In this document: piece after piece, positions 1 to 58,287 of the stretch
Layout of the letters: the number at the start of each line of letters is the position of its first letter
How positions within the stretch are numbered: the stretch's first letter is position 1
Source: a virus
Taxonomy: Duplodnaviria > Caudoviricetes
DNA: 58,837 bases
Reading direction: 5' to 3' (one strand)
IMG/VR virus record: IMGVR_UViG_3300045119_000159
Coordinates: 1 to 58,837 of that record
Position numbers and translations under genes: made by a program
The notes under the pieces: model-generated
Told to the model about the DNA's origin: nothing
The model's database searches: none
What the model saw: only the letters and a program-made list of their open reading frames with translations

Positions 1-127
1 CCGAAAAAACATTGCTCCTCCTCCATCCCCCGGTACTCGCTATGTCAGCCCCTTCTCCACGGCTAGCCATCGCGGCACCAGGACCGATGTCTCGTCATCG
101 GACAGTTCGACCTGCGACAACGGGAGC
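1..127. repeat. Terminal direct repeat, left copy (circular assembly overlap)
   Basis: 1-127 is identical to 58711-58837 (ccgaaaaaac...cgggagc); 127 is a common assembler k-mer length. Confidence 0.97.
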
Positions 128-234
128 CAGACCTCCTCGTCGGCTGCCTCGATGTAGAACAGGATGGCCTTCTCGGTTGTCCGGCGGACCTCGCCGTCGA
201 AGCCAAGATACTCGCGGTCGCTCACAGCTCTCAC
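40..234 (-). CDS. Small hypothetical phage protein
   Basis: Coupled to helicase stop; phage-like motif TTEKAILF...EVWLPLSQV...VPRWLAVEKGL. Confidence 0.75.
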   Translation of the reverse strand: MRAVSDREYLGFDGEVRRTTEKAILFYIEAADEEVWLPLSQVELSDDETSVLVPRWLAVEKGLT

Positions 235-1118
235 GCTTCCTCCGCCCCATACCGCTTGAAAACCCCCGCCGCAGGCTCAACCCGAACAAAAACCCCAGCC
301 TCCCACATCAGCAGGATTTTCTGGTCAGATGGGCCGTAATTGCTTTTTTTGGTCTCGAACACCAAACCCATTTCCGCGTGGTGATACAGATACCAGCGAG
401 CCCTGACGCTGTTGTTCCACGCGACGTTGCCACTCTCCCCGGAACCGCTCGCGCGTCCCGCCAGCGACGGGTGCTTCGTCACAATCACCACACCCTGGAT
501 CAGCATCGCGAGCCGCCGCAACTCGCTGATGTACTGCATGACCTGACGTTCGTCGTTCTGATTGCCATCAAATGTCTGCGTCGCCGTGTCAACAATCAGA
601 TAACTCACCCCGCAATCCCGGCATTGGTCGCTCACCTCGCGCAGCAGCCGGGTCGGCTTCATCTGCCAAGTCACACGGTCCAAACGGCACAGCGCGTTAT
701 CCTGCCCGACACGAGGGCTCAACATCAGGCCACCCTCGGCAAAATCGTCCATCTCCATCCCAAGGTCCCGACCGATCGAGAATTGCCGCCGCCACAACTC
801 GTCGTAATCGTCCTCGCAGGCAATCATCAGCGCCCGGCCCGGCAAGACGCTCATCCCCAACCACGCCCGTCCTACCGCAGCGCTCGAACACAACTGCTGC
901 ATCAACAGGCTCTTGCCAATCCCGCCATCGCCCGATACCAGCGCCACCGTACCCCGCAGAAACGCATTCTCAACCATCCACTCCCGCCTTGGCGGCTGCT
1001 TCCCCTGCCACCTGGCCGGCGATACCGCCCTGAATATCCGATCATCAGCTACTAACCTTTCCGCCGGACGCCCCCGCGCCTCCGCTGTCATCAGCCGCTT
1101 CCACTTCCTCGCGCTCAC
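231..1118 (-). CDS. AAA_25/RepA-like replicative helicase (SF4-related ATPase)
   Basis: Walker A GDGGIGKS, EDD motif, Walker B LIVD, HP...SGESGNVAWNNSVR, KSNYG. Confidence 0.9.
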   Translation of the reverse strand: MSARKWKRLMTAEARGRPAERLVADDRIFRAVSPARWQGKQPPRREWMVENAFLRGTVALVSGDGGIGKSLLMQQLCSSAAVGRAWLGMSVLPGRALMIACEDDYDELWRRQFSIGRDLGMEMDDFAEGGLMLSPRVGQDNALCRLDRVTWQMKPTRLLREVSDQCRDCGVSYLIVDTATQTFDGNQNDERQVMQYISELRRLAMLIQGVVIVTKHPSLAGRASGSGESGNVAWNNSVRARWYLYHHAEMGLVFETKKSNYGPSDQKILLMWEAGVFVRVEPAAGVFKRYGAEEA

Positions 1119-1374
1119 GGCTCAGCCAATCCTGAAAACCGTGTCCGTCCAGATCAGGCTGCAGACCAAGCCGCGCCCGCGATGCTTCTCCGATTTCATA
1201 AATCTCGTCAGGCGTCAGTAGCGGAAAAGGCTTAACCCTTTCCCCAGCACCATCAGCCTCGATGTCAGCCAGCAACCGCCAGAACACGGCACGCACGATG
1301 TAGAGGCGGGCAGCAGCCTCGCCCGTCATGTCGCACTTCCCCGAAACAGCCAGCTTGAATGCATCTTCCTTCAC
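1045..1374 (-). CDS. Hypothetical protein upstream of helicase
   Basis: Co-oriented ORF overlapping the helicase start. Confidence 0.55.
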   Translation of the reverse strand: MKEDAFKLAVSGKCDMTGEAAARLYIVRAVFWRLLADIEADGAGERVKPFPLLTPDEIYEIGEASRARLGLQPDLDGHGFQDWLSREREEVEAADDSGGAGASGGKVSS

Positions 1375-1640
1375 CCTCGCTACGCTCAGGCCTCGCTACG
1401 CTCGATTGCGGCAACCTGTCCAAAAGAAGACACCTTCCCCCTTACCCCCTCCCTAGAAGAAAGGAGGAGGGCGGCCCTGACGGGTTAAACCCCGCCTAGG
1501 TCCGATCAGGCCCCGCACTATCTCAGCGGGCGATATCGGGTGCCGGTGTAGCAGTGGGGTAGAGGCCCCGTGCTGCGGCCGGCTGGGCAGAGCGGCTCGC
1601 TACGGCGAGCCTTCAATCGCCTCTGCCGGGCGTAACATTC
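1375..1640 (-). other. Structured non-coding region, candidate replication origin or primer RNA
   Basis: No ORF; nested hairpins, G-tract 1433-1453 (minus strand), two GAGCGTAGCGAGG repeats at 1375-1387 and 1391-1403. Confidence 0.5.
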
Positions 1641-1646
1641 GGTCGG

Positions 1647-1889
1647 TTACGGCTTTAGTGCCGTATAGGTCTGCGACTCCTCAAACAGCCCCAGGCCGTC
1701 GCGCTGTGGCACTACCCAACGGTTGCGGATCAGAGCCTCGGCGCACCTGCCGGAGATCTCCCTCCCGTTCGCCAAACCCCACACGACTTTGCGATCTGGA
1801 GCGTAAGTTTTCATCAACGGCGATTGTGCTATCATCGCCAAGATTCTGGTCTGAAACATCGTCGGTTTAGGCGGCTTCTTGGCGCGCAT
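1647..1889 (-). CDS. Hypothetical protein
   Basis: ATG with GGAGGT RBS, in the leftward early operon. Confidence 0.75.
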   Translation of the reverse strand: MRAKKPPKPTMFQTRILAMIAQSPLMKTYAPDRKVVWGLANGREISGRCAEALIRNRWVVPQRDGLGLFEESQTYTALKP

Positions 1890-2128
1890 GCGTCACCTCC
1901 CTAGCTTCGGCTTCCTGCTTCATCAGCAGCGAGCCATAGATCATGCAGTCCCAATGGAATGACCACCACCAGCAGGGATCATATGTCACGCCGCCAACCT
2001 CCGCTTGCGTGCTCGCCATTCCCGTCTAGTCCGATTAACCTGTTCCTTTCGTCGTGCCCATCTGTGGGGATCGGAGCGAACCTTTAGATAGAAAGCCCGG
2101 TCTCGGGCGCGCTGGCGCTCAGCGACGC

Positions 2129-2311
2129 TCATGCCGCCCCCTTGTCAGCATCGCTTACCGGAGGCGGCCAATATTTACGGCTGTACAGTTGCGAGAACCG
2201 TACAGCATTCTTGCCTGTGAGAGTGGCCATTGCATCAAGCCGCTCAAATTCCCACGCCTCTTTGAGGCTTAGGTGATCGAAGGGGAACGGATCGCGCACA
2301 GCCAGAGTCAT
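2129..2311 (-). CDS. Hypothetical protein
   Basis: Likely start MTLAVRD overlaps the RusA stop (ATGA). Confidence 0.5.
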   Translation of the reverse strand: MTLAVRDPFPFDHLSLKEAWEFERLDAMATLTGKNAVRFSQLYSRKYWPPPVSDADKGAA

Positions 2312-2736
2312 GCCGCCCTCGCGATCGGCGTTACCGTCACCACGATTTTCGGCTGACCGCTGTAGACTTTTCGCAGTGTCCAATACTCGACTATCTGGCT
2401 GTCATCGCAATACACAACTCCGTTGAACGCATCTTCTACCTGCTTGACAATATTGGATAAATCCGGTTTCTTCGCCGGGCGAATTTCACCTAGAAGCGCC
2501 GCCGTTCGCTTAGCTCGCGAGTAAGATTTCGGGATTGCGAACTCAGCGGTCAGATTTACACCCACTGGACCGGCAAACGGCAATCGCCCGATCATTTCCT
2601 GATGCGCCAAAAGCTTTAGTGCGACGGCGTTGTTGCGTTGCCGCCTCGGCGTGAATAGGGAGCCCGTCTTGCTGATGCGCGTCCTCGCCCATGCTACAGG
2701 CTCGCCTAACAGGCAGACGGTGACGGGATCATTCAC
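2308..2736 (-). CDS. rusA: RusA-family Holliday junction resolvase
   Basis: GEPVAWAR N-terminus, KKPDLSNIVKQVEDAFNGVVYCDDSQIV motif. Confidence 0.92.
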   Translation of the reverse strand: MNDPVTVCLLGEPVAWARTRISKTGSLFTPRRQRNNAVALKLLAHQEMIGRLPFAGPVGVNLTAEFAIPKSYSRAKRTAALLGEIRPAKKPDLSNIVKQVEDAFNGVVYCDDSQIVEYWTLRKVYSGQPKIVVTVTPIARAA

Positions 2737-3107
2737 GCTGGCCGCCCCCGCTTAAGAGCGCGTGCCGCTACCGTGCCAACCGTGTTAGCCTCATCGCTAG
2801 CCGCGACAGGATGTCGGCGAGCCACAGCACCAACCTTTTGTCTGGCCTTTTCTTCACTGGCGGCTCCCCCAGCCCATTGCTGCCGTATCGCGGCACTAAG
2901 CGCATCTCGTTCTTCCAATCTTGCGACGATCCGAGCGGCCAATTCCTCGCGGCGCGCTACAGGGAACCGGCCAGCTAGCCATAGCTTAGCCGTGTCAATC
3001 GAGACGCCCCATTCGCGCGCAATCTTCTTCCGTGCGCTCGGCTCATAGGCAAAGCGCAATGCTTCCGCCGCGCTCGTCACGGAACTACCCACCTTGGGTA
3101 ACGACAT
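2733..3107 (-). CDS. HTH DNA-binding protein (CII-like position)
   Basis: KKIAREWGVSIDTAKLWLAG HTH-like segment, downstream of the Cro-like gene. Confidence 0.6.
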   Translation of the reverse strand: MSLPKVGSSVTSAAEALRFAYEPSARKKIAREWGVSIDTAKLWLAGRFPVARREELAARIVARLEERDALSAAIRQQWAGGAASEEKARQKVGAVARRHPVAASDEANTVGTVAARALKRGRPA

Positions 3108-3445
3108 GCCTCCGCCTCGCGTGTAATTGTCGGGGCGTTGAGGCTACGAGGGCGAGGCCGGACAGGATTATGCGCGATAGTTCCCCCGCTATGGTGCCGA
3201 TCCTGTCCGGTCGAGATTGCGGACGCGCCTATTTCCGCCTTGGCGATCGTCCAATGTGGCGTGACGCGGGGAGGCGTCATGTGCGGAAACCGCCCCCAAG
3301 GGGAGAGGGGATCGTCACCTTGGGGATCTGAGTGCAAATGGGAAGCGAGCCACCACCCGCTCAGCGGCCCTATAACGCAGGCTAGGACAGTCCAGCTTAT
3401 GATGATGTAGAGGGCGGTTGCCACATGGCTTGTCCCATAAGGGGT

Positions 3446-3697
3446 TTATTCAGCGGCGGCTTCAGGCGGGCGGCCGTTTAAGTGGCGCGGCTCAAATTCC
3501 CCGGTCTCGCGATAGCGGCGGATCTGCAATCGGGCGCGCTCGACAGTTGAGAGGCGGCAGTCGCGACCCGTCCGAATCCCAAACACAAACCCCGGATCGT
3601 TGAGCGCATCGCGCCCAAACGCCGTCGGGCTCATGCCGCTTTCGACAAGGAATTGCTCGATTTCCGAGGACAGAGGTGCGTGTGTGTTCGGGTCCAT
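3446..3697 (-). CDS. Cro-like HTH regulator
   Basis: EIEQFLVESGMSPTAFGRDALNDPGFV; divergent from the repressor. Confidence 0.8.
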   Translation of the reverse strand: MDPNTHAPLSSEIEQFLVESGMSPTAFGRDALNDPGFVFGIRTGRDCRLSTVERARLQIRRYRETGEFEPRHLNGRPPEAAAE

Positions 3698-3706
3698 CGG
3701 AATAGG

Positions 3707-3735
3707 AGTTTAATAGGCTTTTTCCTATCAGTCAA
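3707..3735 (-). promoter_or_regulatory. Sigma70-type promoter for the cro-like operon (PR-like)
   Basis: Minus strand TTGACT-N17-TAAACT, -10 ends 9 nt before the ATG at 3697, implying a near-leaderless mRNA. Confidence 0.75.
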
Positions 3736-3750
3736 GCGGATCATTCCTAT
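3713..3750. promoter_or_regulatory. Operator pair (ATAGG-N6-CCTAT)
   Basis: ATAGGctttttCCTAT 3713-3728; degenerate AGCGGatcattCCTAT 3735-3750; 22-bp period. Confidence 0.8.
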
Positions 3751-3786
3751 TGGACTTTTTTTATAGGGCGCGCGAACAAGGTCAGC

Positions 3787-4188
3787 ATGCCCCGAAAGGC
3801 CAAAGACCCTATCCCGTATGATCCGCCGCGTAAGCACCTCTCGGATTTAATGCTACGGGAGGGGCTTGATTTTGCTTCCCTGTCTGCCATGATCGGGCGA
3901 AATGCATCGTACGTTCAGCAGTACATGAAATACGGCAAGCCTCGAAATTTGCCGGAACGGGAGCGGGAAGCCTTGGGACAGCTATTTAAGGTAGATCCAG
4001 ACATTTTTCGCCAAAACTATCGACCGAGGGACGCTCAGAGCGAGTTGCTGGCCCTCTATGAGAGAGTGCCGGAAGAGCGGCAAGACGAGTTTCTGGAACT
4101 GGTGCGCCAAGCCGCGCGGCTCGCCACACCCGAACGGGCGGTCCCTACACGGCCAGGGCACCCGCGCCGCGCGGGAGTCAAAAATTAA
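3787..4188 (+). CDS. CI-like repressor, HTH without an S24 peptidase domain
   Basis: FASLSAMIGRNASYVQQYMKYGKPRNL resembles alphaproteobacterial repressor N-termini; flanked by operators. Confidence 0.8.
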   Translation: MPRKAKDPIPYDPPRKHLSDLMLREGLDFASLSAMIGRNASYVQQYMKYGKPRNLPEREREALGQLFKVDPDIFRQNYRPRDAQSELLALYERVPEERQDEFLELVRQAARLATPERAVPTRPGHPRRAGVKN

Positions 4189-4245
4189 CCAATATTTTTG
4201 AACTGGCGCGTTTAGCGACCCGTTAGCCATAAATATTTTCAGCCG

Positions 4246-4289
4246 ATAGGCGAAATCCTATTGACCGATAGGAAATAGCCTATTAAGCT
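4246..4289 (+). promoter_or_regulatory. Operator pair plus PL-like promoter
   Basis: ATAGGcgaaatCCTAT 4246-4261 and ATAGGaaatagCCTAT 4268-4283; TTGACC(4261)-N17-TAAGCT(4284). Confidence 0.8.
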
Positions 4290-4319
4290 CCCTCTCATCG
4301 AGACACAGAGAGGGGCGCG

Positions 4320-4622
4320 ATGCCGAGCACCGCCGCATCAGACGAAGCGCTGCAAGCCGCTGAAGAATTGCTCAGCGACGAGTGCGCGCCGGAATTGTCG
4401 AATGGCGAGCACGACTGGCTGAAGCACAACATCGCGCGGCTTTGCGACTGGTTTGCCGCTGAAACCCCGACCGAAGAGTTCGACCGCCTGCTCCGCGAAG
4501 CCGCCGAATACCGCGAGGGCATCTTCGCCACGCACCGCTGCTGGCGCTGCAATCACGGCGAGAAGGCGTGCGTCCAATTCGACCCGCATCGCTGCGACTA
4601 TCCCCGCGCACTTAATGATTGA
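4320..4622 (+). CDS. Hypothetical protein with Cys-rich C-terminus
   Basis: First ORF after the PL-like promoter, GAGGGG RBS, CWRC...C...C. Confidence 0.7.
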   Translation: MPSTAASDEALQAAEELLSDECAPELSNGEHDWLKHNIARLCDWFAAETPTEEFDRLLREAAEYREGIFATHRCWRCNHGEKACVQFDPHRCDYPRALND

Positions 4623-4963: not shown

Positions 4964-5568
4964 GCGCAATCGATCTATCGCCTGCAATCGATCTAGCGCC
5001 TTTTTGCGGCACGGACAAAGAAAGAGGGCGGGGTGTTGCGAGTGAGGGCGGCCCCGGTACGATGGTCATATTTGGCCTTAAAAATCATGATCAACCATTC
5101 TCGCGCGGCGACTACACCTACGCGACGAACGGGCACGTTATCGTCAGAGTGCCCCGGCGAGATGAGGTGCCAGAACAGCCGAAAGCGCCCCTCACTGTTG
5201 GTGCGGTGTTTTATAAGATCGACGCCTCCTTGCCGTTCCGCAGAATCCCACGTTACGAAATCCCGGAAGCAAAGAAATCGCCGTGCATTCACTGCTTCGA
5301 CGGTTTTCAGCATGACTGTCCCAACTGCGAATGCGAATGTGAAGAATGCGACGGCACCGGCACTGAAATTGAACTGATATCGGTAGCTCTCGGCCCAGCG
5401 ATTTTGGCGGCTCAATACGTCAAACTGCTGCAAACACTGCCGGATATCAAGATTGCTGTTGGGTCTGATAGGAATAGACCAATGCACTTCACCTTTGATG
5501 GCGGTGACGGACTGCTAATGCCGATGTCGCGCCCTTATGATACGCACGTTAAGGAACCAACATCATGA
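4960..5568 (+). CDS. Hypothetical phage protein with DnaJ-like Zn finger; beta-clamp-like segments
   Basis: YATNGH motif, CxxCxxG and CEECDGTG, C-terminal FDGGDGLLMPM. Confidence 0.75.
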   Translation: MSAIDLSPAIDLAPFCGTDKERGRGVASEGGPGTMVIFGLKNHDQPFSRGDYTYATNGHVIVRVPRRDEVPEQPKAPLTVGAVFYKIDASLPFRRIPRYEIPEAKKSPCIHCFDGFQHDCPNCECECEECDGTGTEIELISVALGPAILAAQYVKLLQTLPDIKIAVGSDRNRPMHFTFDGGDGLLMPMSRPYDTHVKEPTS

Positions 5569-7929: not shown

Positions 7930-8190
7930 ATGATACGGAAGCACCTACGCCAACAAGTTTTCGAGCGTGATGGCGGTGCGTGCCGGCGGTGTCGGCTTTA
8001 CGACTCTAAATGGGAGGCCGACCATATTGTTGAATTGTGGGAGGGCGGCAAGGATGTCCTCGACAATATGCAAACACTCTGCCGGCGGCATCATCGGGAC
8101 AAAACATCAGACGCCACGCCCGTCCGCGCTAAGACAGACAGGCTACGGGCAAGAGAAGATTTAACCAAAAAACGTCGGGAAATACGATGA
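7930..8190 (+). CDS. HNH endonuclease
   Basis: VFERDGGACRRC...ADHIVELWEGG...NMQTLCRRHH. Confidence 0.9.
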   Translation: MIRKHLRQQVFERDGGACRRCRLYDSKWEADHIVELWEGGKDVLDNMQTLCRRHHRDKTSDATPVRAKTDRLRAREDLTKKRREIR

Positions 8191-8408
8191 TGGCTGACCG
8201 AGAAGAGATACTAACGGAAGCATTGCACAAAATCCTGCAATGGAGCGAAGCCTACCCGCTAGAGATTTTCCGCGAACCCGATTGGGCGAAGGCACGGGCA
8301 TTGCTCGCAGCGGGCGGCGTATCGCTCGATGCGGTCAGCGGCGCTTGCTGTCGGCGCGTTGTCGAAGGCATCGGCGACATCGCGCGCCAAGCATTGGAGG
8401 AATCATAA
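8187..8408 (+). CDS. Hypothetical protein
   Basis: WSEAYPLEIF motif; coupled to neighbours. Confidence 0.7.
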   Translation: MMADREEILTEALHKILQWSEAYPLEIFREPDWAKARALLAAGGVSLDAVSGACCRRVVEGIGDIARQALEES

Positions 8409-8905
8409 TGGCGCTGCCGATAACGGCGAACATTCGGCAGTTCACGCAAATCTCGGGGCTAGGCAAAACCAGCATTTACGAGCTTATCAATTCCGGCCAG
8501 GTGGAATCCGAATTTGTGAGCGGGCGACGGCTAATCAAGGTCGCGTCCTACATGGAGTTAATTCGCGCATCTTTGGACAGCGTGACGCCGCCGCGCCTGC
8601 GAGCCGAAAAGAGCCGCAGGGTAAAAAAGAGCCGCAGAAAAATGACAACCCGAAACAGCTTTGTCTATTTCATGGGCGGAGATGATGGCTATGTAAAAAT
8701 CGGCTTTTCAAACAATCCCCATAAACGGTTGAGAGGCGTGCAAATAGGCTCCGCCTCGCCAGTGCGTCTACTCGCTATGCTTCGCGGCGACCGAAATGAC
8801 GAAGATAGCCTACATAAGCGATTTGCTGCTTACCGCGTTCGTGGCGAATGGTTTCGCTTTGAGGGAGAGTTCAAGGAATATGTGGAGGGCCTTCCCCATG
8901 AGTAA
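8408..8905 (+). CDS. Xis/AlpA-like HTH fused to a GIY-YIG (T5orf172-like) domain
   Basis: ISGLGKTSIYELI...GRRLI; VYFM...VKIGFS...RL..Q...E..LHKRF...RGEWF; GGAGG RBS before 8408. Confidence 0.85.
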   Translation: MALPITANIRQFTQISGLGKTSIYELINSGQVESEFVSGRRLIKVASYMELIRASLDSVTPPRLRAEKSRRVKKSRRKMTTRNSFVYFMGGDDGYVKIGFSNNPHKRLRGVQIGSASPVRLLAMLRGDRNDEDSLHKRFAAYRVRGEWFRFEGEFKEYVEGLPHE

Positions 8906-9143: not shown

Positions 9144-9144
9144 G

Positions 9145-9382
9145 GATGGGAGAAACGATGGGTGAAACGATATTTGGCCTCATAAGGCATTGTAATTTCT
9201 ATGATCGTCCCGGTCATCTTCTCCGGGAACCCTGGTCCGTAACCGACCGCAACAGACCACTTCGCTAGGGAAGCCGCTATAATCTTATCTTCCTATCGTT
9301 CGCATCAACCCGCAACAGCCCGCATCAAACCGCCTCCCAATGATGGGAGAAATGATGGGAGAGGACATCAGATGAGAGAAAC
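9145..9382. other. attP-like recombination site
   Basis: 12-bp arm-type repeats GATGGGAGAAAY at 9145, 9157, 9342, 9354, 9371 (variants); IHF-like TAAGGCATTGTAA 9183-9195; 10-bp direct repeats 9301-9333. Confidence 0.65.
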
Positions 9383-48768: not shown

Positions 48769-50427
48769 TCAGCGACGCCGTGCGTAACGTTTAGCGCGCT
48801 CGTATCCGAGATTCGCCATAACCTGAAATCTCTCGGGCATGTGCCGCTGTGCCGCTCTCTCATCCCCGTAAGCCCACGCCATGACTACCGCATCGGCCTT
48901 GTCCGGCGATCGTCCCAGGCGCTTCCGGATCTGCTCTTTCATCTCGATCTGGATGTCCCGCTTCTCGGGAATCCGGCGCGGCATTGCCAGTTCAGCCGCC
49001 AACTCAGGGTCAGGCGGTAACGCAATCCCGGCCCCCGTCTCCGGGTCCAACGCCTCACGAAACCGCCACCAAGCTTCCGCCCGCTTGTTGGCAAACCCCT
49101 CCAAACCGTTCGCGCTCTTCAGCATCGAGCCGCTGGAGCCGAGAAACCCGACTACCGCGTCGTCGGGGAGTTGGTGTCGAAGGTGGTCGTAAGCCGAACC
49201 ACCCCATCCTCCCCCCATGTCAACGACCACCGTACATCCGTCCCGCATTGCTCCGAATACCAGCGCAGCAACCGCAGGGCCGTTGCTGGTGTCAATACCT
49301 TCCACCGACTTGACCGGAGCAAACCATCGTCCATGCCGGGCGGCAAGCACGGTTCTATCCGGTCCACCTTGCGCAACATCCACTCCCATCGATGTCATCG
49401 GCACGTCACGCGGCGGCTCGCGGAACCACCTCTGACGAGCCTTCTGTATCCAATCGCTCGGGATCACCTGCCAGGCCGCGTCCTCACGACCAGCGAGGAA
49501 GTCGCCCTTCAAGAGCTGACTTCGCAGCGGCTCTGGCAGGTTCTCCAGTGTCGCCCGGTAATCCGTCCGAGCGAGATACGGGTTGTCGTTGAGCAACGCC
49601 GGCACAAACGTCCGCGATTTCGCGGTATACTCTTCGCCCTCAACCTCGTATCGCCCCGGCCCCTCAACCCACTGCGTCTTGTTCTTCGGGAAGATGAACC
49701 AGCGCAATTCACCCGGCACCGCAACCCCCGCAAAACTCGGGTCCAGCCACGGCGCAAACCATTCAACCAGCCACTGCCCTTCCGAGCCACGCGGCGGGTT
49801 GGATGCAAAAATCACCCGACAGCGCTGATCCACATCGGTCGATCGGCACCAGCCAATCAACGAAGCCGCCTGTTCCTCCAAAAACTCGCCAGCCTCGTCA
49901 AACGCCATCAGATCCCGCGCCCGACCGGCAAATCCCCGCCAATCGTCCGGCTCCTTCATGCCGCCCAGCTTGATCGAACGCCCGCCAGCATTGTGCTCGC
50001 CGCCATTCCCCTCGTACCGCCAGCCCTCGCGCCCGATCATCTCCCACAAGCCGTTGATCAACCCGTCCAACTCAGTCGATTGCCGCCTCAGGATAAGCGC
50101 TCTCTTATGATTGAGCGCGGCACACCCCAACAGCAGAGCGCTTTTGCCGCCACCCGCCGCACCACCGTACAGCAATTCGTCCGCCGCCGAATTCAGCGCC
50201 ATCGTCTGCGGCCCCGGCAACGCCACAAACGGCAGCCTCAAAACCCCCGCCAACGCCTTGACGATGCCCGCCCGCTGATCCTCCGGCAGCCTCGCCAGAT
50301 CACCCTCAATCGTCTTTAGCTGCTCCGTTATCGGGAGTGCCTTAAACTCTTGCAGCGCATCCAACCCCACCTCGTTCCTGTTTCGCGGCGACGGATCTAC
50401 CAGCGCCGCCAGCAGAGAGGTCAGCAC
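48769..50427 (-). CDS. terL: Terminase large subunit
   Basis: LLYGGAAGGGKS, FDEA, ASNP, GVDVAQGG.D, SPDKADA. Confidence 0.95.
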   Translation of the reverse strand: MLTSLLAALVDPSPRNRNEVGLDALQEFKALPITEQLKTIEGDLARLPEDQRAGIVKALAGVLRLPFVALPGPQTMALNSAADELLYGGAAGGGKSALLLGCAALNHKRALILRRQSTELDGLINGLWEMIGREGWRYEGNGGEHNAGGRSIKLGGMKEPDDWRGFAGRARDLMAFDEAGEFLEEQAASLIGWCRSTDVDQRCRVIFASNPPRGSEGQWLVEWFAPWLDPSFAGVAVPGELRWFIFPKNKTQWVEGPGRYEVEGEEYTAKSRTFVPALLNDNPYLARTDYRATLENLPEPLRSQLLKGDFLAGREDAAWQVIPSDWIQKARQRWFREPPRDVPMTSMGVDVAQGGPDRTVLAARHGRWFAPVKSVEGIDTSNGPAVAALVFGAMRDGCTVVVDMGGGWGGSAYDHLRHQLPDDAVVGFLGSSGSMLKSANGLEGFANKRAEAWWRFREALDPETGAGIALPPDPELAAELAMPRRIPEKRDIQIEMKEQIRKRLGRSPDKADAVVMAWAYGDERAAQRHMPERFQVMANLGYERAKRYARRR

Positions 50428-57843: not shown

Positions 57844-58287
57844 CTAGAAACGCACCGCTGGGCATCCTAGGCCATGCTCAGGACGCCACTCTGTTTCCCT
57901 CAGTACCCGGTCCATATAGGCGTCCCAAGCGTCACAGCGGTCGAATGTGGTGCGCTGCCGCTCGCTTCCAAATCTCACCCAGCCCCGGCGTCTGGCAAGG
58001 CCGATAACGCCACACTTGGCAATTCCGTGCTTTGCGCCAATCTCGGAAGCTGTGCTCCGCGTCTCCTCCCACTCCTGCCGGATAGCCTCTTCCTCGCCAG
58101 GCGTCCGCTTCCTTGGAGGTTTCTGCGGATTGAACGAAACCCATCCCCGTCGCCTGAAGAGGCGATAAAGAGTATCCTCCGATACTCCGTAGTCGGCAGC
58201 TATTTGCCTTCGCGTCGTCGGCGTCTCTTCCCACAATACGCGAATGGCCTCTTCCTGTTCTGGACTCACGATATCCGCCCTCCGCAA
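57844..58287 (-). CDS. Tandem GcrA-like HTH protein
   Basis: Two EEAIR..WEE..T...I...G HTH units; second unit TASEIG...KCGVIGLARRRG; start uncertain. Confidence 0.7.
   Translation of the reverse strand: MRRADIVSPEQEEAIRVLWEETPTTRRQIAADYGVSEDTLYRLFRRRGWVSFNPQKPPRKRTPGEEEAIRQEWEETRSTASEIGAKHGIAKCGVIGLARRRGWVRFGSERQRTTFDRCDAWDAYMDRVLRETEWRPEHGLGCPAVRF

Follow-up and report, generated by a model that had tools for sequence, protein, structure and literature searches.

The question raised by this locus is what function is performed by the largest stretch of a soil phage genome without a sizeable open reading frame, located within the replication gene cluster and near the gene of a RepA-like helicase. 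The DNA analyzed (hereafter, the window; 58,837 bp) is a complete soil phage record with 127-bp terminal repeats, and the genome was present wholly or partly in contigs of four soil metagenome runs. The leftward (minus-strand) genes start from a divergent region near position 3700 and follow in this order: an 83-aa ORF, genes for proteins of 115 and 124 aa, RusA (Pfam 1.7e-24), a gene for an 84-aa protein, an 80-aa ORF (1647–1889), the gap considered here (1375–1646), a 109-aa ORF (1045–1374), the gene of an AAA_25 ATPase (231–1118) and a 64-aa ORF. In the plus-strand arm, Erf is encoded together with a YqaJ exonuclease and a NinB-like protein, and a T7-type portal, a large terminase and an Sf6-type small terminase are among the products of the late genes. 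With its divergent arms and its genes for Erf, the exonuclease, RusA and the NinB-like protein, the early region has a lambdoid look, yet profile searches of the genome gave no match for a tyrosine integrase, a resolvase/serine recombinase, ParB_N or AAA_31, and the plasmid-like maintenance suggested by an earlier sequence-only reading of the locus is therefore unsupported. No tRNA or tmRNA was found in the genome, so an attP-type tRNA fragment is unsupported; blastn of positions 1–4000 against 50,697 phage records returned no match. Relatives of the helicase occur in Azospirillum, Rhodospirillales and other Alphaproteobacteria, which points to an alphaproteobacterium as the probable host. In the early-left arm, an HNH endonuclease gene (7930–8190) adjoins the gene of a T5orf172/MUG113 (GIY-YIG-like) protein (8240–8905), and this pair may represent homing endonucleases.

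With 272 bp, the gap surpasses every other part of the genome that is free of ORFs of at least 60 aa in all frames; six stretches of at least 80 bp without such an ORF were found, the next largest being 228 and 164 bp long. The earlier description of roughly 270 ORF-free bp upstream of the helicase holds at this cut-off, although small ORFs of 21–52 aa exist inside the gap, and its position had to be corrected, since the 109-aa ORF lies between the gap and the helicase gene. The GC content is 65%, and GC by codon position is flat (0.63/0.65/0.69 vs. 0.72/0.48/0.61 in the next gene), so the gap is regarded as non-coding. No promoter-like site was predicted in it on either strand, and none of the four terminator-like sites of positions 1–4500 falls within 1375–1646. 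An AT-rich unwinding element is absent from the gap (the lowest GC over 40 bases is 0.55), and DnaA-box-like sites, of which there are five in the genome against 6.08 expected, do not occur in positions 1–4000. The structured RNA that had been read into the gap found no counterpart in Rfam: the whole genome gave no match at the gathering score, and in E-value mode positions 1250–1750 gave four matches, all with E of at least 1.1 and 9–15 bits, none of them to RNAI. Comparison of the gap by blastn with loci L002–L019 gave nothing below E = 0.1; a search for it as a host repeat in six genomes gave two marginal matches (E = 0.016–0.027); and among 401 sampled alphaproteobacterial genomes one 22-base match was obtained, with an E-value of 6.4e-4 per genome that is at chance level over 401. 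A match of the gap to pSymB (E = 0.3) was dismissed as GC-rich and unstructured. As a non-coding element, the gap is both real and unusual.

The nested hairpin described earlier was confirmed and consists of GGCAGAG (1586–1592), GCTCGC (1595–1600), a TACG loop, GCGAGC (1605–1610) and CTCTGCC (1621–1627). It forms hairpin A (1579–1629), whose inner stem carries the third copy of the 9-mer CGTAGCGAG (1596–1604); the segment 1578–1632 folded with −29.0 kcal/mol on the minus strand (z = −2.64, 3/200 shuffles) and −33.1 kcal/mol on the plus strand (z = −3.09, 1/200 shuffles). Hairpin B (1542–1583) adjoins it and, owing to G–U pairs, is clearly more stable on the plus strand, the segment 1534–1584 giving −21.6 kcal/mol on the minus strand (z = −2.99, 1/200 shuffles) and −31.2 kcal/mol on the plus strand (z = −3.98, 0/200 shuffles). 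The fold of the whole gap was not significant (z = −1.56 and −1.63), and the same was true of three other sub-segments. Neither hairpin is followed by a T run of the kind that marks an intrinsic terminator. An inverted repeat, CGTAAC/GTTACG (1630–1652), read directly as a candidate, covers the stop codon of the 80-aa ORF (1649–1647), with which the gap opens.

The G tract and the 13-base repeats reported earlier were also found as described on the minus (operon-sense) strand, namely GGGAGGGGGTAAGGGGGAAGG at 1453–1433 and GAGCGTAGCGAGG twice. The two exact copies of the latter (1403–1391 and 1387–1375) have a 16-bp period, and the second abuts the GTG start of the 109-aa ORF. A C/U-rich arm with CCTCCTTTCT (1444–1472, minus strand) pairs with the first G runs, the fold of segment 1405–1476 being not significant (z = −1.06). 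The 9-mer CGTAGCGAG occurs four times in the genome against 0.41 expected, a count reached in none of 100 shuffles, and three same-strand copies lie in the gap, where each 13-base repeat contains one and the stem of hairpin A the third. When viral contigs were scanned for pairs of neighboring CGTAGCGAG copies, 24 stretches were obtained; blastn and tblastn linked none of them to the window, and many were AGCG-type arrays. Iteron-type theta origins were taken to combine at least three phased iterons, an AT-rich element, DnaA boxes and a cognate initiator gene; in the gap there are two tandem copies and one 9-mer about 200 bp away, with no array of at least four, and Pfam/PHROG-type searches of the neighboring ORFs recognized no initiator family.

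The proteins encoded on both sides of the gap have few relatives. The 80-aa ORF gave no Pfam or PHROG match and had no relative in viral contigs. The 109-aa ORF, which starts with GTG and is predicted to be all-helical with an acidic tail, has coding-like GC by codon position and, judged by its sequence, is a real gene. In the full HMMER search its sole true homolog was P0004 (168 aa, 42% identity), encoded on a 57-kb contig; the 2845-aa repeat protein P0003, which gave nine weak stretches, was regarded as spurious. An index of 5.8 billion proteins returned only the 109-aa protein itself, no relative was present in viral contigs, the protein atlas gave no usable match, and tblastn against all the loci collected here gave no match. 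The AF2 model of the 109-aa protein had a pLDDT of 52.8, too low for comparison of folds, and complex prediction for the helicase with this protein scored 0.00, which gives no verdict. For the 310-aa protein, an atlas cluster was matched at 0.76, and the PDB sequence search gave none. A low-depth variant contig of the 109-aa gene from run X3 (covering 1043–1288) differed by 14 substitutions and in-frame indels (6; 1 + 2 bases), indicating a related strain in another soil sample.

The AAA_25 ATPase (231–1118, minus strand; Pfam 4.9e-26) is of the RepA-like hexameric helicase type. Its closest solved structure is RSF1010 RepA (PDB 1g8y, 1.4e-06), and the nearest named phage protein is RepA of Wolbachia phage WO (35% identity). 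Genomic relatives had identities of 33–47%, the sole higher value (64%) belonging to a 72-residue fragment from a Burkholderiales contig, and the search of plasmids yielded a single Azospirillum record only. The helicase gene (third-position G and C, 0.53/0.22) and the large terminase gene (48769–50427; 0.50/0.22) show an extreme excess of G over C in the third codon position, unlike the other 50 ORFs. The RepA of RSF1010 (IncQ) resembles the window helicase and is of similar length. IncQ replication needs the RepB′ primase, RepC and 20-bp iterons; no RepB_primase match was obtained in the window, which does not qualify as an IncQ replicon. The RepC profile gave no matches in the genome, but the control gave none either. 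The earlier statement that no primase or polymerase is recognizable stood for the families tested, with no matches for Toprim_3, Zn_ribbon_DnaG, Prim-Pol, RepB_primase or DNA_pol_A.

The comparison of related helicases covered eighteen viral and fourteen genome loci. In relatives with a long helicase, a DnaG-like primase is encoded directly upstream of the helicase; Toprim_3 was detected in both long-helicase records and in none of the three short-helicase records, one of which is 99% complete. Arrays of nine-base repeats were found just past the helicase stop codon in 7 of 26 helicase-linked loci, with eight copies in L008, L009, L010, L011 and L046 and four in L048 and L057. The repeat units (e.g., GCGTTGACC or TTCCGACCT) are accompanied by A-rich tracts and by a G/C hairpin whose loop is TAAA. 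In L010 and L011 the arrays end in G/C runs around TAA(A/G), and the hairpin CCCCCCTAAAGGGGGG follows the array, with GGGGTAAGAGGGGG present there as well in L010. These arrays are probably iteron origins of Azospirillum-type prophages that carry a primase together with the helicase. Like the gap, these regions are non-coding and flank a homologous RepA-like helicase; however, they have four to eight nine-base iterons, A-rich tracts and a DnaG-like primase gene, none of which is present in the window. The closest relatives of the helicase (L002–L007, 54–63% identity) have RusA, a conserved small protein and the helicase tightly packed, and neither an array nor the G-rich core described below was seen in the DNA examined around the helicase. 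The conserved small protein of these loci showed no profile similarity to the 109-, 84- and 80-aa proteins of the window.

Conservation of the gap beside a homologous helicase was limited to a G-rich core of 28 bases, CTAGGGAGGGGGTAAGGGGGAAGGTGTC (1429–1456, minus strand), which spans the G tract. It was identical at 26 of 28 positions (1456–1429 vs. 5113–5140) to a sequence of the Rhodospirillales contig L051, in which a weak RusA match is followed by a 311-aa helicase (45% identity). The blastn score was 42.8 bits (E = 9.5e-6, calculated against 280 kb of helicase-linked loci), the runner-up match of the gap to these loci reached 30.1 bits, and none of 300 shuffles of the gap reached 40 bits (maximum, 37.4). 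In L051 the core sits in a gene-poor stretch of about 660 bp after the helicase, followed by AT-rich palindromes. Both sequences carry the core on the helicase-sense strand, downstream of the helicase in L051 and upstream in the window, and the rest of the gap did not align with L051. Among the 27 helicase-bearing sequences examined, the 28-mer CTAGGRAGGGGGTAAGGGGGWAGGTGTC was located beside the helicase in a non-coding stretch only in the window and L051, and the pattern was absent at up to three mismatches from all 401 sampled alphaproteobacterial genomes. It should be noted that the 18-base center of the core is also present in 29 viral stretches, which fall into about ten groups and all lack a helicase relative, so that this center is not specific when taken alone, and that the G tract (15 G in 21) shares the rank of G-richest 21-mer of the genome with four other places. 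The core may represent a newly proposed conserved cis element of short RepA-like-helicase phage modules. As a separate observation, AGGGGGTAAGGGGGTAGG stands directly before ATATAAT in L064–L090, viral contigs of about 100 kb mostly from one metagenome, where its context is conserved and non-coding and belongs to a family of AT-rich phages.

The sequence-only reading had compared the gap with origins of the ColE1 family. The 12-mer on which it drew is real, since GAGCGTAGCGAG occurs exactly at 1332–1343 of ColE1 (NC_001371.1) on the RNA-like strand, and the gap carries it twice. As a positive control for RF00106, RNAI of ColE1 was detected by Rfam at 645–749 on the minus strand (73.8 bits), which places RNA II on the plus strand; the origin, which we take to be near 1200 from the 555-base distance, would then precede the 12-mer by about 130 bases. 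According to excerpts of PMC3167613, the region of this 12-mer is exposed as the ssiA/n′-pas site. The gap resembles ColE1/pMB1 in having a G run on the RNA-like strand (G tract 1433–1453, sense strand) with the 12-mer downstream and no initiator protein, and its local alignment with ColE1 1151–1420 (the ori-pas region) had a score of 29, which none of 500 gap shuffles reached. However, among 1172 windows of the genome this score was tied by 58245–58266 and two more places reached 28, one AGCG-rich palindrome in the 280 kb of helicase-linked loci also scored 29, and the 12-mer is a near-repeat of AGCG that forms arrays in unrelated viral contigs. The distance from the G run to the 12-mer is 30–60 bases in the gap and about 150 in ColE1. 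RF00106 RNAI gave no match in the window, and blastn of 1330–1700 against 72,556 plasmids at E of at most 1 returned 39 records (37 from Sinorhizobium and 2 from Streptomyces, E = 0.3), none of ColE1 type. Neither the repeat region of the gap nor the corresponding site of ColE1 itself folded significantly. The phage has a helicase gene of its own, the relatives of which are found in Alphaproteobacteria, it has no RNAI/RNAII homology, and its hairpins fold better on the opposite strand. The similarity is of the low-complexity, chance-level kind; homology of the gap to RNA II, RNA I and the ssiA primosome site is extremely improbable, and membership in the ColE1 family was rejected on account of the tied score, the arrays of AGCG-like 12-mers and the lack of a ColE1-type plasmid match. 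One 191-kb viral contig (L039, L030 and L036) contains many GAGCGTAGCGAG-type repeats, 15 of them in L039.

In its general form, the earlier interpretation is strengthened by the comparison of relatives: the gap looks like a cis element of a replication module, with the G tract as its key part. The reading that we prefer, tentatively and at somewhat less than an even chance, is that the gap acts in cis as the origin or control region of a module that is built on the RSF1010-RepA-like helicase and lacks both iterons and a primase. The module would consist of the 109-aa protein and the helicase, with the gap as its origin or replication-control region and the 28-base core on the helicase-sense strand as its conserved heart. 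The window phage and L051 would represent a short-helicase lineage without primase and iteron array: where the primase-bearing cousins have eight iterons and a G/C hairpin after the helicase, these two would have a gene-poor stretch with the 28-mer. Initiation could then proceed without an iteron-binding initiator, at or near the core; the hairpins and the three copies of CGTAGCGAG may serve as accessory structure or as protein-binding sites, and the phage helicase would be loaded at the core, while priming and synthesis would be performed by host enzymes. An origin is favored by the location of the largest ORF-free stretch of a complete genome within the replication gene cluster, by its non-coding composition, by the conservation of the 28-mer beside the matching RusA–helicase module of L051, by the iteron arrays next to the helicase gene in primase-bearing relatives, by the lack of matches to the primase, polymerase and RepB-type families searched, and by the clustering in the gap of three same-strand 9-mers and two significantly stable hairpins. 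It is disfavored by the single further instance of the 28-mer found beside a helicase, by the opposite placement of the core relative to the helicase in L051, by the packed arrangement of the closest relatives without core or array, by the helicase-free occurrences of the 18-base center, by the lack of an AT-rich element, a DnaA-box cluster and a predicted promoter in the gap, by the possibility that the core is equally a translation start region (in both sequences an SD-like run is followed by GTG), and by another gap at 9144–9382, in which GC is lower and a 12-base repeat is present in four or five copies. The latter is the second-largest ORF-free gap of the genome (228 bp, GC 0.51) and contains four copies of GATGGGAGAAAC with at most one mismatch, arranged as two pairs about 197 bp apart, as well as CCGCAACAG-type repeats with a 10-bp period. 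Because of its repeats and lower GC it looks more like a classical iteron origin and is a candidate alternative origin or regulatory region, but it may also be a duplicated ribosome-site and start region.

The main rival to an origin, unlikely in our estimation though to be taken seriously, is that the gap serves only as an expression-control leader with no role in initiation, in which the hairpins would stop or stabilize the upstream transcript and the core would be a strong ribosome-binding site for a short GTG leader peptide whose translation is coupled to that of the 109-aa and helicase genes. The core indeed ends in GGTG-TC, with a GTG and a short frame of 15 codons in the window and 9 codons in L051, and the frame of the window ends 11 bases before the GTG start of the 109-aa ORF, which has no well-spaced Shine–Dalgarno sequence of its own; yet the two leader peptides have just two residues in common, and conservation of 28 bases across helicases that are 45% identical exceeds the need of a ribosome site. 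Similarly, the C/U-rich arm with CCTCCTTTCT can pair with the G runs, but this anti-SD-like hairpin is not significant, and the 10-mer of the arm is no commoner than expected by chance. Both hairpins start right past the stop codon of the 80-aa ORF, and the RNA segment 1501–1600 is the only stretch of the operon with C over G, a composition that suits Rho loading, whereas neither hairpin has a U run after it and neither was called as a terminator. If transcription took the opposite direction, the gap could be the gene of a small RNA or a cis-antisense RNA on the plus strand, in a position comparable to that of the lambda oop RNA, which sits between cII and O. The folding energies of both hairpins favor the plus strand (−33.1/−31.2 vs. 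−29.0/−21.6 kcal/mol), with the G–U pattern of a functional plus strand; however, the plus strand of the gap has no promoter-like or terminator-like site, there is no Rfam match, the sequence occurs in DNA contigs only, with no RNA run listed, and the conserved 28-mer lies outside the hairpins, all of which makes such an RNA very unlikely. A similarly small probability is assigned to the gap being a mosaic joint that arose when phage modules recombined and that has no function. The DNA that separates RusA from the helicase is peculiar to the window phage, its close relatives having RusA, the small protein and the helicase without a gap, and the 109-aa and 80-aa genes are near-orphans; against this stand the significantly conserved 28-mer, the three clustered 9-mers, the two stable hairpins and the identity of the gap sequence across contigs of three runs from three studies that cover part or all of it (two may be the source sample).

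As a sub-case of origin function, the gap could be a transcription-primed (R-loop) origin, in which a hybrid would form at the core, the helicase would be loaded on the displaced strand and the RNA would prime the host polymerase, in a manner analogous but not homologous to ColE1, T4 oriF/oriG and mitochondrial CSB II; this more specific proposal is considered rather improbable. With respect to operon transcription, the core occupies the non-template strand in the window as in L051, and a scan with our own script, based on QmRLFS-type rules, showed that the core has the longest downstream zone of at least 40% G in the genome (850 nt vs. 450 and 300 nt for the next), although equally dense G tracts are found at four other places. 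With G3 = 0.53 and C3 = 0.22, the helicase gene has the top third-position skew of 52 ORFs (+0.41; mean 0.03, sd 0.15), whereas G3 is about equal to C3 in 13 homologous genes; however, an excess of G over C is seen in the terminase gene (+0.39) and also upstream of the core, in the 80-aa gene (+0.31), which shows that the core is not where the skew starts. Neither a primase of the families searched nor an iteron array was found, as would suit priming by a transcript. Precedents are T4 oriF/oriG, described in excerpts of PMC3016281 as R-loop phage origins with transcript priming without an initiator protein, and CSB II (PMC3488243), with which the gap has in common two long G runs on the non-template strand in a transcribed region near replication functions. 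As with the T4 origins in these excerpts, a transcript could prime in the gap and the phage helicase could be loaded on the displaced strand, but the promoter and the A+T-rich unwinding element of oriF/oriG have no equivalent near the core; CSB II belongs to an unrelated system with an unrelated polymerase and serves as an analogy only. In its fullest and distinctly doubtful form, this proposal holds that a lineage of soil alphaproteobacterial phages, having lost the primase and the iteron array that its cousins have, starts replication at a conserved G5-TAA-G5 core, where an R-loop or an RNA–DNA G-quadruplex hybrid would give both the primer and the strand for helicase loading.

If the gap is merely an expression-control leader, the finding is an ordinary one. 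How helicase-only phages start replication is poorly known, and in the preferred reading of the gap as an origin or control region, one helicase family would have two set-ups, iterons with a primase and a G-rich core without a primase. If the core is a start site, it would provide a sequence signature for origins in a group of uncultured soil phages and a compact system in which to test initiation without an initiator, possibly primed by transcription; and if the transcription-primed form of this reading is true, the gap would be a phage origin that needs no protein initiator and fits neither the T4 nor the ColE1 paradigm.
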